From positions 1 to 64,000 of the IMG/VR virus record IMGVR_UViG_3300048790_000078: a stretch of DNA of 64,000 nt; one strand, written 5' to 3'. The stretch is from a virus. The notes below the pieces were generated by a model. It had not been told where the DNA came from. It did not search any database and was given only the letters and a program-made list of their open reading frames with translations. Both the position numbers and the translations under genes were made by a program. This document shows positions 21,751 through 36,398 of the stretch, piece after piece (the first letter of the stretch is position 1; every line of letters begins with the position of its first letter).

Positions 21751-24700
21751 CTAATAGGGAGTCAGCAGTTTTTTTTTACGGAGAACCTGCTGGCCCGGCG
21801 CCGACAGCAACAGCTTGATCGTGGCTTGTTCGCCCGAGGCCTTCTCCCCTTGCGATTGCTCACCGCCGCCCGCTTCACCAGCGCCAATCTGCTTCTGTCC
21901 TCCGCCTGGCGCTGGTGGATGCAGAGCATTTTGCGCATTCGCCTGCGCCTGAGCGATCCCCGTCGCGAAAGGAGTATAGACGCCGGTTGCACCGTTGAGA
22001 ACGCCTGGTGGCAGGCCGAACGGATCATTGCCATCGTCCTCGCGGACTTCGTCGATCTGCAGCGTGCCGTTCTTCAGCTTGATGTCCTGAATCTGTGCCT
22101 GCTTCAGCGGATCCGGATCGGAGTCGAGATCGAAGTGCGCCGACACGCCAGGGATCTTCATGCCTTCCCGCGCGATCCGCGTCATCAGCGCTTCCAGCCA
22201 TTCGAGGTCGCCCATCGTGCCTTCTTCACGGGCGCTGTCGGCGTTCGACTGAGAGGTCGACCGGTTGAGCTGGCGGATGTAAGGCGTCGGCGAAATGTTC
22301 AGCGCATCGCAGAAGATCCGCGCCAGCCATTCATCGAAGTCGTCCTTCAACATCGCGCCCTTCGTCTCGAATGGCGAGGCTCCGGTGTGCGGGATGAACT
22401 TCACGCGGCGCCGCTTCGCGAGGTTGCCGGCAGCCTGATCGAAGATATCCTGGAATCGGCCGATCTGCAGTTCAGTCCACGTCTCCGGGACCTGGATGAT
22501 CATCTCCGGTGTGTTGCCGCTCGTGAAGTACTCGGTCTGGCTGACCATTCGATTGACGGCCATCACGGCGTAATCGAGACAACTCTGAACAGGAGAATTC
22601 CCACACCAAGATGGCTTGCCGTTGCGACGAACATACACGATTCCGTTCGGCACGGTGACGCAATGTATCGTTCCTGCGTAATGAACGGTCTTGGCGGTGA
22701 CCGACATCGCCGTCGAGTGACGCTCTGATACGACGAAACTTTCCCTACACGCTGACGTATATGGCTTTCCTCCATTTGGGAAAACGGTCTCGCATGGCGG
22801 TCTTCGACGAGTAGATGCCGAGAACCCCAGTTTTTGCGCGATCTCCACAAGGTCGGATTCCAATTTATGGCTAACAGTCGTAGCTCTCCAGGCGCTTCGC
22901 GGGTGTTTCCCGCGCCCTGATTTACTCGGCCTTTTTTCCAGGCCGCCATCTCCGGCCATGTAAAACTCCCAGAAAATACGCAGCTGGCGGGCCGTTGCTC
23001 CCTTAACTGCCAACGGCACATACTTGTCCGCCGCCTTGCCGAACGCTGCAAAGTAGCGCCCGACTTGCGCGTAACTGCAAATAAAGGCGTGCCCGTTGTA
23101 GCCGTCTTTCCCTGTGAGATTGATGCGCTTTAACAAAGCACTGAACACAGGGAACGCGGGAGATTTGGCGTCTTGATTTATTTCGATTCCTCCGGCAGAG
23201 CGCAGATTTCCTTCTGCCAGATATGCGCCAATCAAAGCACAGAAGTCATCGCCGCTTATCGAGAGAGACCGTTCCTTCGGTTTGGTTTTCGGGAAGTCGA
23301 CCATTCCTATCTCGACGCCACCGGACCAGACTGACGTGACGGGAATCTTTCGGACTGGGTTGTTTCCCTTCTGGAGCTCGGCCGCAGTCATTATTTTTTC
23401 GTAACGGCGACTCGTCTCCAGCCTGCCTGTCGGAGCCTCCACGAGCATTCTGTGCTCCGGCGTCACCATGATGTCCATGGATCGAGCGGTAAAGTGAATC
23501 ATCTCGCCGTCTCTGTCGTAATGGTGAATCGCGCTCGGGCGCTCCCATTCAAATTCTTTCGTGAGGGTGTTTCTGGTAGCTACCCGCTCCCCGTGCAGCA
23601 GATTCCGAAATAGTTGAAAACCTCTCGTCTCGGTCAGGATTTCCGTCTGATCGTCGTAACACTGCCCGTAAAGGAATGGCGCGCGCGGGTTTTGCACCGA
23701 ATAGAACAGCGGCATGCAGGTGCCGTCAACGCTCCGACCGTTCACGACGATCGTGTGATACCCATTCGTCTGGCACGACGGGCACTCGCCGGAGGTCATG
23801 TTCACCGATGGAGAATTACCGCACCACGCCGGTTTTCCGTTTCGACGCACATAGAGATTGCCATTCGGGACTGTCGCGCAATAGACCATGCCTGAGTAAT
23901 CAACGGTGCTTATATCTGGCAGGCATGTCTCTTTTTGAGACCGGAAACCTACGACGTAGTGGACTCCGCGATTGATCACGCGGCGTTCACCGTCTTCGAA
24001 AATTTCACTCTGTGTCGCCGGCTCTGTCCTGATAGAAGCCGACTTTCCAAGCTTAAGGGCGATCTCCTGAATTTGATCCGCAAGGCGCTTGCTGCTGGTC
24101 GAACATCGATCACGTCCAGCGTGCCCATCACCGAGGTGGAAGAATCTCCAAAAAATTCCCAGTTGCCTGCGCGTTGCGTTCATAACAACGTCCGGAATCC
24201 ACTTGTCGGTGGCGTGACCGAACTGCTTCAGATAGCGAATTAAGCTGACGGAATTGAAGACGTATGAATTTTCAATCCTACGCGTCCTGTTGCCTGTCAC
24301 TCGCTTCAGAAGTTCACCGTATTCGATGTCTCCGCGTCCGCCGTGGATTTGTGAAATAGCAACGACTGCGCCGCGAGGATCATCATTGCACGATCCCTCT
24401 GCCATGTAAGCCCCCATGAAGGCGCAGAAATCGTCTCCAGACATCGTGATCGGCAGGATGTCTTTTGGTTGGCGCCGTCTTCCACGAACAGAAATTACGG
24501 TAACGGCTTGATGCGCGGCGGCGAGGCTCAGCCCACACTTGGCTGCGATCTGCGAATACGAATCGCCGGCAGAGCGAAGATCCACGGCTTTCTGATCGAC
24601 AACAAGCCGAGCGAAATGCTTGTCGTCTTCGCGGCGGGGGAATCGCTGCGGGCCAATTTCAGTGCCATCCCATCCCGCCGTAAGCGGTACCCGTGTTGAA

Positions 24701-25704
24701 ACCGTATAGTTTGCAGCAAGATCATCGGCGCGCAAGAATAAACCCGTCGCAGTTCTTTCGGCTTGACGGAAGAGACTATGAGGAACCCGGGTCACCATCA
24801 TCCGGTGGTTGGGCGTAACAAGCAAGTCAACAAAACGAGACCCGAAAGACTGCATCGGACCGTCATACATGTACCCTGTCAAATCGGTAGGCGCTTGCCA
24901 CTCCAGAGAGCCAGCAGCGTTTCTTGTCGCGAATTCATCACTTTTGCTGGCCGCACTCCACGGTAGCCACCCGCGGCGTGTGAGAACTTCGCTGTCTTCC
25001 GAATAGCACCCCTTGATCTGCTGAGCATAGGCGGGGTTCGGCGCGTTCGGGGACCAGCCCTGTTCGTCCCACATCAATTTGATCGTGGCGCCGTCGAGAA
25101 TGCGGAGTGATTTGCAGACCCTCTGATCGTCCATCACCGGCCAGATGGCGAGCGCGTCGATCACGAGCACCTCTTCGAGCAGCATGCTCAGCCACGCCAT
25201 CCAGTCATGCTCCTGGTCTGGCTTCTCAAAGAACCGCGTCAGGTATTGCACGCGGGGATCGGCGGCCGACCGCTTGTCGAAGTCCTTCGACTTCTCGCCG
25301 GGCAGCTTATCAACCTTCCAGACCAGCGGGATCTTGACGATCTGCCGCTTCCGGCGGTTGATACAGAGGCGCATCACGTTGACAGCATCGGCGAACGCGC
25401 GAAGCTGCGGGAAGCTCGGGCCGCCCTGCTCTGTCCGAGGCTGAGAGTTCATGTTCAGCGTCATCGGATAGTCGGTCACGCGGGGAAGCGTGCCGGGAGG
25501 TGCCTGAGGCTTCAGCGGTTGCCCGGGCCCGAAGTATGACGCGCCGGTCACCGTGTCGATGTAGTCGCGCGCCACGTCGATGAACGACACCGTCCGCGGG
25601 TCGACCTGCACGGTCAGGGCGTTAGCGGGGATCGACGGCAGCCCGGTCTTTGTTCCTTCGAAGGCGCCTGTGGCGGCATCGAGAGCTTTTGCGAGGATAC
25701 TCAT
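21751..25704 (-). CDS. Portal protein with two inteins (about 564 aa after splicing)
   Basis: F.QLRAFAD, L.ILDGATIK, P.PAY.Q.IKG, YG.SP, YFT.GNTP portal motifs. Confidence 0.9.
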   Translation of the reverse strand: MSILAKALDAATGAFEGTKTGLPSIPANALTVQVDPRTVSFIDVARDYIDTVTGASYFGPGQPLKPQAPPGTLPRVTDYPMTLNMNSQPRTEQGGPSFPQLRAFADAVNVMRLCINRRKRQIVKIPLVWKVDKLPGEKSKDFDKRSAADPRVQYLTRFFEKPDQEHDWMAWLSMLLEEVLVIDALAIWPVMDDQRVCKSLRILDGATIKLMWDEQGWSPNAPNPAYAQQIKGCYSEDSEVLTRRGWLPWSAASKSDEFATRNAAGSLEWQAPTDLTGYMYDGPMQSFGSRFVDLLVTPNHRMMVTRVPHSLFRQAERTATGLFLRADDLAANYTVSTRVPLTAGWDGTEIGPQRFPRREDDKHFARLVVDQKAVDLRSAGDSYSQIAAKCGLSLAAAHQAVTVISVRGRRRQPKDILPITMSGDDFCAFMGAYMAEGSCNDDPRGAVVAISQIHGGRGDIEYGELLKRVTGNRTRRIENSYVFNSVSLIRYLKQFGHATDKWIPDVVMNATRRQLGIFWRFFHLGDGHAGRDRCSTSSKRLADQIQEIALKLGKSASIRTEPATQSEIFEDGERRVINRGVHYVVGFRSQKETCLPDISTVDYSGMVYCATVPNGNLYVRRNGKPAWCGNSPSVNMTSGECPSCQTNGYHTIVVNGRSVDGTCMPLFYSVQNPRAPFLYGQCYDDQTEILTETRGFQLFRNLLHGERVATRNTLTKEFEWERPSAIHHYDRDGEMIHFTARSMDIMVTPEHRMLVEAPTGRLETSRRYEKIMTAAELQKGNNPVRKIPVTSVWSGGVEIGMVDFPKTKPKERSLSISGDDFCALIGAYLAEGNLRSAGGIEINQDAKSPAFPVFSALLKRINLTGKDGYNGHAFICSYAQVGRYFAAFGKAADKYVPLAVKGATARQLRIFWEFYMAGDGGLEKRPSKSGRGKHPRSAWRATTVSHKLESDLVEIAQKLGFSASTRRRPPCETVFPNGGKPYTSACRESFVVSERHSTAMSVTAKTVHYAGTIHCVTVPNGIVYVRRNGKPSWCGNSPVQSCLDYAVMAVNRMVSQTEYFTSGNTPEMIIQVPETWTELQIGRFQDIFDQAAGNLAKRRRVKFIPHTGASPFETKGAMLKDDFDEWLARIFCDALNISPTPYIRQLNRSTSQSNADSAREEGTMGDLEWLEALMTRIAREGMKIPGVSAHFDLDSDPDPLKQAQIQDIKLKNGTLQIDEVREDDGNDPFGLPPGVLNGATGVYTPFATGIAQAQANAQNALHPPAPGGGQKQIGAGEAGGGEQSQGEKASGEQATIKLLLSAPGQQVLRKKKLLTPY
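22597..23661 (-). mobile_element. Intein 2 in portal (355 aa, LAGLIDADG endonuclease)
   Basis: Q|CYDDQTEILT..VRRNGKPSWCGN|S; LIGAYLAEGN and YMAGDG. Confidence 0.9.
23815..25008 (-). mobile_element. Intein 1 in portal (398 aa, LAGLIDADG endonuclease)
   Basis: G|CYSEDSEVLT..VRRNGKPAWCGN|S; FMGAYMAEGS and FHLGDG. Confidence 0.9.
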
Positions 25705-25907
25705 GCGGGTGTCAACTCCTGAAGGTCAGCATACGCCCGCTCCATTGCATGACGAGCAGAGAGCAAATCAGCGTGCCAATCGATATTGCCGTCGAATCGG
25801 CCGTTCCGCTCCACGAAGCGCGCCAGCCGCAACAGACGTGCCTTGGCATCGCGCGCGATCTTCAGGGCCGAATCGTAGGTTAGCGTCTCAACACTGGGGT
25901 ATCTCAT
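25701..25907 (-). CDS. Hypothetical protein
   Basis: ATGA overlaps with both neighbours. Confidence 0.5.
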   Translation of the reverse strand: MRYPSVETLTYDSALKIARDAKARLLRLARFVERNGRFDGNIDWHADLLSARHAMERAYADLQELTPA

Positions 25908-26158
25908 GCGGCAACTCCAGCGAGAGAGAGAACGTCGAGCGTCGCCGGACAGGCAGGGGAGTCCTGTCGATGTTTGTCGGCAACGGCCTCTTGCGCCCCA
26001 TGCAGCGTGGTCGGGATCCGGCTCAGCGGGATGTTGCCGCTGGCCTTGCAGTCGAGGCAGTTCCAGCGAACGTGCCGCTCGAACTCGCCGACATTGATCC
26101 GGCCGGGCTTCACAACCCGGTACGCGCTACCGTCTTCCATCACCCGAACGGTGTTCAT
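25904..26158 (-). CDS. Hypothetical zinc-binding protein
   Basis: CLDC..H..C; TATCAT 7 nt upstream of ATG. Confidence 0.5.
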   Translation of the reverse strand: MNTVRVMEDGSAYRVVKPGRINVGEFERHVRWNCLDCKASGNIPLSRIPTTLHGAQEAVADKHRQDSPACPATLDVLSLAGVAA

Positions 26159-26195
26159 GGAGACTATGATAAATCAGGCCGGGATGCTGCTGGGA

Positions 26196-26575
26196 CATAC
26201 CCCTCCTTTGGTCCTTCAGACCAAGCTGCCCTGATAGCAGTTCTTTGAAAGGGAATTGGCGATTCTTCTTCCTGCCCTGTCCCGGACCATTTTCGGGAGG
26301 GCCGCAGCTTTACCTGAGTCGCTATCCCAGGTAACTGCCCGCGCCGTCCCCGCGCGTGCGTCGCAAGTCTGCCGGTGAACCGAAGTGTCCCGGATTGCGT
26401 CTGGATTGAAGAATCGGCATAAACCCAACTATTGCGGGATTAGCTATCACTTGTGATTGGTCCCCGCTTTCGCCCCAAGGAATCTCCATAAAGCGAAACC
26501 TTGCGGGTGGATCGCCCGCTCGACGAAGTGGGTTTAAGGGTGATGCGGTTGATTTCCCGCGTGCTGCTTCACTTC
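26196..26575 (-). ncRNA. Candidate structured non-coding RNA of unknown family
   Basis: Intergenic; nested stems 26260-68/26408-16, 26420-27/26529-36 and 26196-204/26536-45; several internal hairpins; upstream TGCTATCAT. Confidence 0.55.
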
Positions 26576-26661
26576 GAAATCATGATAGCATAGAGGTGCT
26601 GCTTCACAATTCCGCCCGGCCGCCAGCCTGATAACCTGGAACACGGCCGGGTTTCGTTTCT

Positions 26662-26856
26662 TTACGAGAGCGAGATCCAGAGATCTTTCTGGAAGTGGAG
26701 CGGACAACCGCAAGGGCATTTGCCTGTCAGGTAGGTTGCCACCCAGTACGCTTTGAATTCGTTCGGCGTATTCTCCTGAGGTTTCAGGTGGATGGCTTTC
26801 AGGCGGAACTCGATCTCGTTGCCGCGCAGCGCCTGTGGTTCCTTCGGCTTTCTCAT
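26662..26856 (-). CDS. Hypothetical small protein
   Basis: ATGA overlap with upstream gene; CPCGC. Confidence 0.4.
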   Translation of the reverse strand: MRKPKEPQALRGNEIEFRLKAIHLKPQENTPNEFKAYWVATYLTGKCPCGCPLHFQKDLWISLS

Positions 26857-34949: not shown

Positions 34950-35232
34950 ACCTATCAAAACAAAGGGTTTACTGGAGTCCAAAATAAGGCTCTCAAGTCA
35001 CTCATTCTAAAGGGTTTAGAGATTTCCACAGTTTCGGCTAGTTTTCCACATTTCGGGCGGAATTGTGCACAGGAAATCCACAGTCAGCAGGCTGAAAATC
35101 GCTTCTAAGTAACTCAAAACAAAGCGTTTAACAAAACTTGTGGATAACTCAGAATTCTACAGCCAGGGCGGTTTTCATCCTCGGTTTCAGGGTATTCTAT
35201 AAGAGTAGTAAGTAATACAAAACAAACGGGTT
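34950..35232. promoter_or_regulatory. AT-rich origin-like region with DnaA-box-like and IHF-like repeats
   Basis: TGTGGATAA at 35139-47; near matches at 35022, 35042, 35063, 35074; four CAAAACAAAG(G/C)GTTTA-like repeats. Confidence 0.55.
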
Positions 35233-36263: not shown

Positions 36264-36398
36264 ACGCGCCATGCGGGCCGGATGGCCGGTCCGCTTTCAA
36301 ATGTCCATCAAAACACCAGCTTCCCCGCAGCGATGGACGGGCAACGGAGCGTAGACGTTCCGGCAATGGTGAACCTTCCCGAAAGTGAACAAACGAAC

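Follow-up and report, generated by a model that had tools for sequence, protein, structure and literature searches.

Genomic context

The window, a stretch of 64,000 nucleotides, opens an IMG/VR phage record that is 86 kb long. Between 26661 and 26159 it has no gene, and the resulting gap of about 500 bases separates the terminase from the portal region, with all of the neighboring genes and the candidate features read from the minus strand (Table 1). The unannotated gap had been taken as non-coding in an earlier sequence-only reading, and this is borne out: third-position GC is flat over 26500-26200, stop codons occur in all six frames, and the small ORFs found by six-frame translation of 26661-26159 have no Pfam match. 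A decayed methyltransferase or other gene was also considered, and no trace of one was found in the gap by tblastn, six-frame translation or Pfam.

Table 1. Genes and candidate features between the large terminase and the portal (window coordinates).
Feature	Position	Strand	Description
Large terminase	29064-27529	-	RNaseH-like nuclease domain, classical type
o92, cold-shock-domain protein	27502-27224	-	Pfam CSD, 2.9e-13; encoded just after the terminase
o118, membrane protein	between o92 and o100	-	
o100, upstream neighbor	26662..26856	-	likely 64 aa from ATG at 26856
Left-edge hairpin	26615..26664	-	A-rich tract 26664-26652; two-tier GC-rich hairpin CCCGGCCG...CGGCCGGG, 26651-26615
Promoter-like site	26582..26609	-	-35 TTGTGA 26609-26604; 16-nt spacer; extended -10 TGcTATCAT 26590-26582
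5' leader	26538..26576	-	hairpin P0, GCGG-loop-CCGC, 26560-26545; terminal-stem 5' strand GCAU, 26546-26543
Domain 1 (variable)	26418..26537	-	three hairpins; closing stem UAAACCCA/UGGGUUUA uncertain
Domain 2 (conserved core)	26258..26416	-	9-bp closing stem CGAUUCUUC/GAAGAAUCG; four hairpin branches
3' tail	26195..26257	-	hairpins CUGCU..GGCAG and UUGGUC..GACCAA, enclosed by CCCUUUC 26253-26247 / GGAGGGG 26206-26200
23-codon ORF	26127..26198	-	AUG within the terminal stem; overlaps the start of o84 out of frame
o84, downstream neighbor	25904..26158	-	84 aa, Cys-containing; outside the RNA element; third-position GC up to 0.93
o68	between o84 and portal	-	
Portal	21751-25704	-	1,317 aa; inserts with LAGLIDADG/Hint domains

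Upstream of the gap, the stop codon of o100 abuts the left edge of the element described below, and o100 is syntenic with L035:2754-3002 in a related phage. The o92 product is an RNA chaperone-type protein encoded two genes upstream of the element, and is kept in two terminase relatives, L034 (67%) and L035 (48%). Downstream, o84 has no Pfam family match; its homologue P0135, a stand-alone protein of 87 aa, begins at the same N-terminus. The Cys-containing segment of o84 (about residues 29-75) has 16 separate matches in P0134 (3,288 aa) and six in P0136 (1,821 aa). The portal owes its length to the LAGLIDADG and Hint inserts; relatives that have no intein measure 560-568 aa and show 78-84% identity across the N-extein. 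These closest portal relatives and the o84 homologue (97,670-bp contig) were found in ENA/Logan only, and no relatives of o84 or o68 were found in IMG/VR. ARAGORN found no tRNA in the window. Most of the confidently called genes of the phage, among them o92, o118, o84 and a MuF-like gene, are without a Shine-Dalgarno sequence, and the perfect AAAGGAGG in the tail of the candidate RNA is thus exceptional for this genome.

Folding and homologue searches

The minimum-energy fold of the minus strand reproduces domains 1 and 2 at the positions of Table 1, and every stem listed in the sequence-only reading is present on that strand. Relative to dinucleotide shuffles, the z-scores are -2.6 for domain 1 and -3.1 for domain 2, with plus-strand equivalents of -2.65 and -2.62, and the folding energy of the whole gap is -187.9 kcal/mol for the minus strand as compared with -188.0 kcal/mol for the plus strand. 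Among about 1,600 windows of this 59%-GC genome, those of the gap rank from 63rd to about 1,480th in folding energy. Folding of one sequence alone, for either copy of the element, is not clearly beyond chance.

With the 4,227 models of Rfam 15, the whole window gave no hit at gathering threshold. The element and its homologue (below) gave, at E<=10, noise only, of 13-17 bits, to unrelated eukaryotic families, so that neither copy matches a known family, tmRNA and RNase P included, as had been anticipated from the sequence. A scan of IMG/VR with a 16-mer taken from the domain 2 UUCG hairpin gave six loci, one of which, L039, is a true homologue. L039 lies in G001, a complete phage of 94,480 bp with terminal repeats. 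Covariance models for the test of this locus were built from the window sequence alone; that of domain 2 matched L039:5812-5651 over its full length (144.5 bits, E 2.6e-32), and that of domain 1 matched the directly adjoining L039:5948-5814 (22.3 bits, E 4e-4). Beyond L039, no further members were found in IMG/VR word scans, GTDB genomes, INPHARED phages or PLSDB plasmids, and no paralogue was found in the same phage.

Relatives of the terminase were inspected for what they carry at the same site. In L003-L005 (46-47% identity) the RNA was not found with nhmmer or the covariance model, and the sequence of L034 (74%) ends before the slot. L035 (62%) keeps o92-o118-o100, followed in the slot by a reverse-strand DNA methyltransferase gene, which indicates that the site is a variable insertion slot. 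The slot sequence at L035:2913-3245 (-) is the 3' end of that methyltransferase gene, and overlaps the end of the o100 homologue by about 90 nt.

Parts of the cassette and their conservation

Two members are known, and every covariation count given here is thus a single pairwise comparison of the window with L039. Identity to L039 is 53% in the promoter, 55% in the leader with P0, 53% in domain 1, 81% in domain 2 (about 90% inside the closing stem) and 83% in the tail, and falls to 31-38% in the flanks, 31% being the downstream value. The drop at both flanks delimits a module spanning 26664 to about 26195. It is best read, from sequence and its comparison, as a cassette composed of the left-edge hairpin, a promoter-like site and a candidate RNA of about 380 nt extending from about 26575 to about 26195.

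The left-edge hairpin sits upstream of the promoter-like site and is 65% identical to its L039 counterpart, where the stem is rebuilt with different bases (GCCCGCCAG/CUGGCGGGC). Read on the plus strand, it resembles an intrinsic terminator, with a GC stem followed by a T-run, TTTCGTTTCTTT in the window and TTTTTCGTTTTTC in L039, and a terminator scan calls it on that strand in both phages (26615-26664; L039:6030-6085). The L039 plus-strand terminator stops 3 nt short of the ATG that begins a 2,812-aa gene.

An element at about 26582-26590 had been noticed upstream of the RNA, and this sequence, TGCTATCAT at 26590-26582, is identified, by consensus match only, as the extended -10 element within TTGTGA-16-TATCAT, a promoter-like site. 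The predicted transcription start, at about 26576-26573, falls inside the conserved CGAAGUGA. At the equivalent position L039 has TAGTGA-15-TGgTATCAT followed by CGAAGTGA, with a -35 that is below the promoter-scan cutoff. A 14-mer spanning the -35 of the RNA promoter (GGCGGAATTGTGAA, 26605-26618, -) recurs at 35054-35067 (+), near the leader of the early region; with a BLAST E of 0.13 this may be chance, or possibly a promoter-upstream element that the two places share.

In the leader, the P0 stem is invariant between the two copies and the P0 loop differs. Domain 2, whose hairpins include c(UUCG)g, UUACCUGGG/CUCAGGUAA and GCCCUCCCG/CGGG..GGGC, provides the clearest comparison. In seven of its 52 pairs both bases are replaced and pairing is kept: four in the 9-bp closing stem, the strands of which are 150 nt apart, two in CGCAA/UUGCG and one in GCCC/GGGC. 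Overall, 96% of the domain 2 cells pair, versus 32-45% pairing and zero to two double changes when the partners are slid by one to three columns, and the loops and junctions are almost invariant. In domain 1, with an alignment that was fitted to the model, four double-changed pairs are kept, 95% of cells pair, and U-G pairs of hairpin 2 become C-G. Slid controls for both domains give 31-51% pairing. Covariation shuffles gave 4/500 and 30/500, which is near the strongest result that two rows allow. Together, domains 1 and 2 hold 11 compensatory, double-changed pairs between the two sequences. With 96% of cells paired and seven double changes in domain 2 against zero to two in the controls, the L039 homologue places the structure beyond chance.

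The tail pairs its Shine-Dalgarno-like GGAGGGG with CCCUUUC. Next comes UAUGU, which supplies the 3' side of the terminal stem, and beyond it similarity to L039 stops. All three helix changes in the tail are switches between G-U and Watson-Crick pairs that retain pairing. A -10 hexamer that had been assigned to the next gene (CTGCTATCAG, 26240-26231) is instead a conserved hairpin of this tail. The terminal stem, GCAU/AUGU in the window, is GCAAU/AUUGU in L039, with a 1-nt insertion on each strand; of the outer stem originally proposed (CAUCACCCUU/AGGGGUAUG), this GCA(A)U/AU(U)GU end is therefore kept, and the ACCCUU/AGGGGU part is lost.

The closing stem of domain 1 is less certain. In L039 it has two mismatches, A.A and C.A, and an alternative pairing of the domain 1 closing strand with the tail covaries, GGG/CCC becoming GAG/CUC. 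As the same G-to-A change that weakens the closing stem is compensated in the alternative pairing, the region may be dynamic or mis-assigned.

The strand assignment was evaluated with L039, since that copy did not define the structure. G-U outnumber A-C cells by 12 to 4, favoring the window minus strand; the earlier argument from wobble pairs in this way holds, with moderate strength only. The conserved extended -10 (ATG[C/G]TATCAT) and the CGAAGUGA that follows it agree with the minus strand. As for coding, the two copies have no ORF in common, and the 39 substitutions in domain 2 and the tail (26195-26416 in the window, L039:5588-5812, both minus strand) are distributed 13/13/13 over codon positions; on these two counts a type I toxin (hok-like) mRNA was rejected. 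A CsrA sponge was likewise rejected, as a hand count of about 10 GGA motifs, with about 7.5 expected, is no enrichment. The 23-codon ORF at the end of the tail is probably not a gene. Its AUG is only 3 nt from AGGAGG, and L039 has in its place a UUG start with 6 codons, followed by a terminator-like hairpin.

Setting of the second copy

The two phages that carry the element have little else in common. The capsid protein of G001 is 68% identical in amino acids to that of the window phage, with few and weak matches otherwise and no detectable match to the window terminase; at the DNA level only three segments align, the RNA being the best at 84%. In L039 the element has on one side a real gene of 541 aa, Q/A-rich, and on the other the 2,812-aa gene, which encodes a multidomain, head-cargo-type protein with 2H phosphoesterase and methyltransferase domains, and L039 has no gene equivalent to o84. 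The element is antisense to both neighbors, convergent with the 541-aa gene and divergent from the 2,812-aa gene, an arrangement that leaves no gene downstream of it. The only minus-strand ORF downstream is junk that is antisense to a real gene. The position between terminase and portal, given for the element in the sequence-only reading, is thus true of the window and is not a property of the element, which in L039 occupies another site and runs the other way; in L035, as described above, the slot is occupied by the methyltransferase gene. An antisense copy that has kept its promoter argues against a plain 5' UTR. The proposal of a new phage ncRNA that is more than a UTR therefore gains support from covariation, from the lack of a family match, and from the L039 context.

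Interpretation of the element

Taken together, these findings are interpreted, at roughly even confidence, as an autonomous, trans-acting gene for a structured ncRNA of about 380 nt that belongs to an undescribed family. The cassette would carry its own sigma-70-type extended -10 promoter, and the RNA made from it would comprise the short P0 leader, a fast-evolving, three-hairpin domain 1, a nearly invariant domain 2 built on a five-way junction, and a 3' tail that would lock the Shine-Dalgarno-like AAAGGAGGGG in a helix, with a short stem joining the 5' and 3' ends. The cassette may have been moved between, or retained in, phages otherwise dissimilar, in either orientation and in head-gene regions; horizontal movement is the best reading of the comparison. 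The RNA would presumably act in trans, with domain 2 offering its invariant loops and junctions as a working surface that may bind a protein or another RNA, and domain 1 as a probable scaffold. The masked Shine-Dalgarno-like tail could have a partner in the translation apparatus, or could be a simple structural clamp. That the element is without a gene to regulate in L039, yet keeps promoter, core and tail there, favors the autonomous, trans-acting form. Set against an autonomous gene are the 3' edge, with a Shine-Dalgarno-like sequence and start codon as in a cis-acting leader, and the opposite-facing intrinsic terminator conserved at the 5' edge, for which this interpretation has no explanation; in addition, what L039 has could be an orphan of recent acquisition and not a working gene.

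The main rival, considered unlikely but the strongest of the alternatives, holds that the element is a regulatory leader acting in cis, either like a riboswitch or under the control of a protein, with domains 1 and 2 serving as sensor and the tail as expression platform. Under this scheme AGGAGG and the AUG would be masked by CCCUUUC and freed when its CCC pairs instead with the GGG of the domain 1 closing strand, which would control translation of the short ORF and, through coupling, that of o84, o68 and the portal; the L039 copy would then be an orphan whose gene was lost. Several findings agree with this. Similarity stops exactly at the Shine-Dalgarno sequence and start codon, the former is paired in a conserved helix, the competing GGG/CCC to GAG/CUC pairing covaries while the closing stem of domain 1 gains a mismatch, the first codons are similar (AUG UCC in the window and UUG UCU in L039), and the window element lies in sense, directly upstream of head genes. 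However, nothing lies downstream in L039, where the tail is nonetheless 83% identical and the promoter intact; the 3-nt spacing of AGGAGG to AUG is poor for initiation; a Shine-Dalgarno sequence is absent from most genes of this phage; o84 is complete as a gene and has a conserved start of its own; and the known riboswitch classes in Rfam are unmatched. A selfish or decaying mobile DNA cassette, that is a moron remnant or non-autonomous element, conserved through recent transfer or for a DNA-level function (terminator, promoter, protein-binding sites), is improbable. It would accommodate the difference in site and orientation between the two phages, the variability of the slot among relatives, the plus-strand intrinsic terminator at one edge, and the equal folding of the two strands. 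Yet neither recent transfer nor DNA-level sites predict the strongly uneven divergence (domain 1 is 53% identical, the inside of domain 2 about 90%) or the compensation of stem changes, which argues against such a cassette, as do G-U/Watson-Crick switches that are sensible only for an RNA of one strand; by eye, terminal inverted repeats and target duplications were not seen at the edges.

The remaining explanations have little probability. Self-splicing or self-cleaving RNA, whether a group I intron, an HDV-like or another ribozyme, is very doubtful. Portal inteins next door do mean that mobile elements are present, a few words resembling R/S (UUCAC..AGACU, AUAGUCU) are visible on inspection by eye, and at least one HDV-like motif occurs elsewhere in the phage. 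Against these, both copies failed to match Rfam intron and ribozyme models even at E 10, an HDV-type descriptor scan of the gap was negative, the ORFs on either side are not two parts of a single gene, given that o84 starts like its stand-alone homologue; the L039 copy, being antisense to the surrounding genes, could not be spliced from their mRNA. A group I intron was accordingly rejected (no RF00028 signal, conserved o84 start, antisense L039 copy), as was an HDV-like ribozyme, with nothing found on either strand of 26159-26661 in a permissive descriptor scan and no Rfam HDV-type hit. HDV-like and theta ribozymes are a nested double pseudoknot, P1-P2-P3-P1.1, with the catalytic C in J4/2 (Kienbeck et al. 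2024, PMC10879173). The motif elsewhere in the phage, a clean candidate from the same descriptor scan at 36303-36371 (+), has P1 GTCCATC/GATGGAC, L3 TCCCCGC, J4/2 GCAA, and a P4 with the octamer CGTAGACG, and was not called by the Rfam gathering search. Least probable of all is chance folding of GC-rich intergenic DNA, with a shared stretch that is coincidental or conserved only as sequence. The z-scores are indeed modest and the same on both strands, and by the authors' own estimate perfect inverted repeats of 8-9 bp are expected about once per 500 nt at such composition, but a 480-nt match with an E of 2.6e-32, sharp edges and structure-preserving double substitutions essentially refute it.

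Beyond the autonomous, trans-acting gene favored here, a broader and more tentative proposal can be made, possible but held with distinctly less confidence: that the two copies are the first members of a new class of large phage RNA with tertiary structure, which would pass among unrelated phages in the form of a promoter-plus-RNA cassette and would act on the host in trans, either through the ribosome or an RNA-targeting defence, or by being loaded into capsids. If the ribosome or defence version is true, engagement would be through the invariant five-way-junction core and the masked Shine-Dalgarno mimic; if the capsid version is true, the RNA would be loaded with head cargo proteins that are encoded beside it. 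A packaging role like that of the phi29 pRNA is pure speculation, the sole hint being that both copies lie among head genes. With its clean boundaries, a promoter motif, an almost invariant core of about 160 nt with covarying stems around it, and its occurrence in two phages of little other similarity, the candidate is a well-defined object for RNA biology and for phage-host work, and the seemingly empty gap of a phage head-gene cluster would hold a gene.

Comparison with known systems

The phi29 pRNA (RF00044), the analogy drawn in the sequence-only reading, is also a phage ncRNA found among head and packaging genes. The present element differs in that RF00044 is unmatched, it is twice the size of the pRNA, it keeps no fixed place with respect to terminase and portal, and the phage has a classical large terminase and not a phi29-like packaging ATPase. 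Translational riboswitches and RNA thermometers share with it a Shine-Dalgarno-like AGGAGG that is paired upstream, with a start codon next to it and a possible competing helix; unlike riboswitches, it matches no known aptamer class, has in L039 a copy without a gene to regulate, and has poor spacing from the Shine-Dalgarno sequence to the AUG. The hok-type type I toxin mRNAs resemble it in a length of about 400 nt, in 5'-3' pairing, in a masked Shine-Dalgarno-like sequence and in cassette-like mobility, whereas the element has no conserved small ORF, no hydrophobic peptide and no codon pattern, and no promoter for an antisense RNA was seen.

Large RNAs that are structured but have no assigned function are rare, and of these ROOL and GOLLD are phage-borne and architecturally remarkable. 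Compared with these, and with HEARO and OLE as further comparators of size, the element has no Rfam 15 match and is smaller, at about 380 nt; in contrast to ROOL and GOLLD it is not beside tRNAs, and two members are known. ROOL and GOLLD are nevertheless the closest in kind. They likewise are multi-branch ncRNAs of several hundred nucleotides in phage genomes, have no known function, and also combine conserved junctions and loops with covarying stems.
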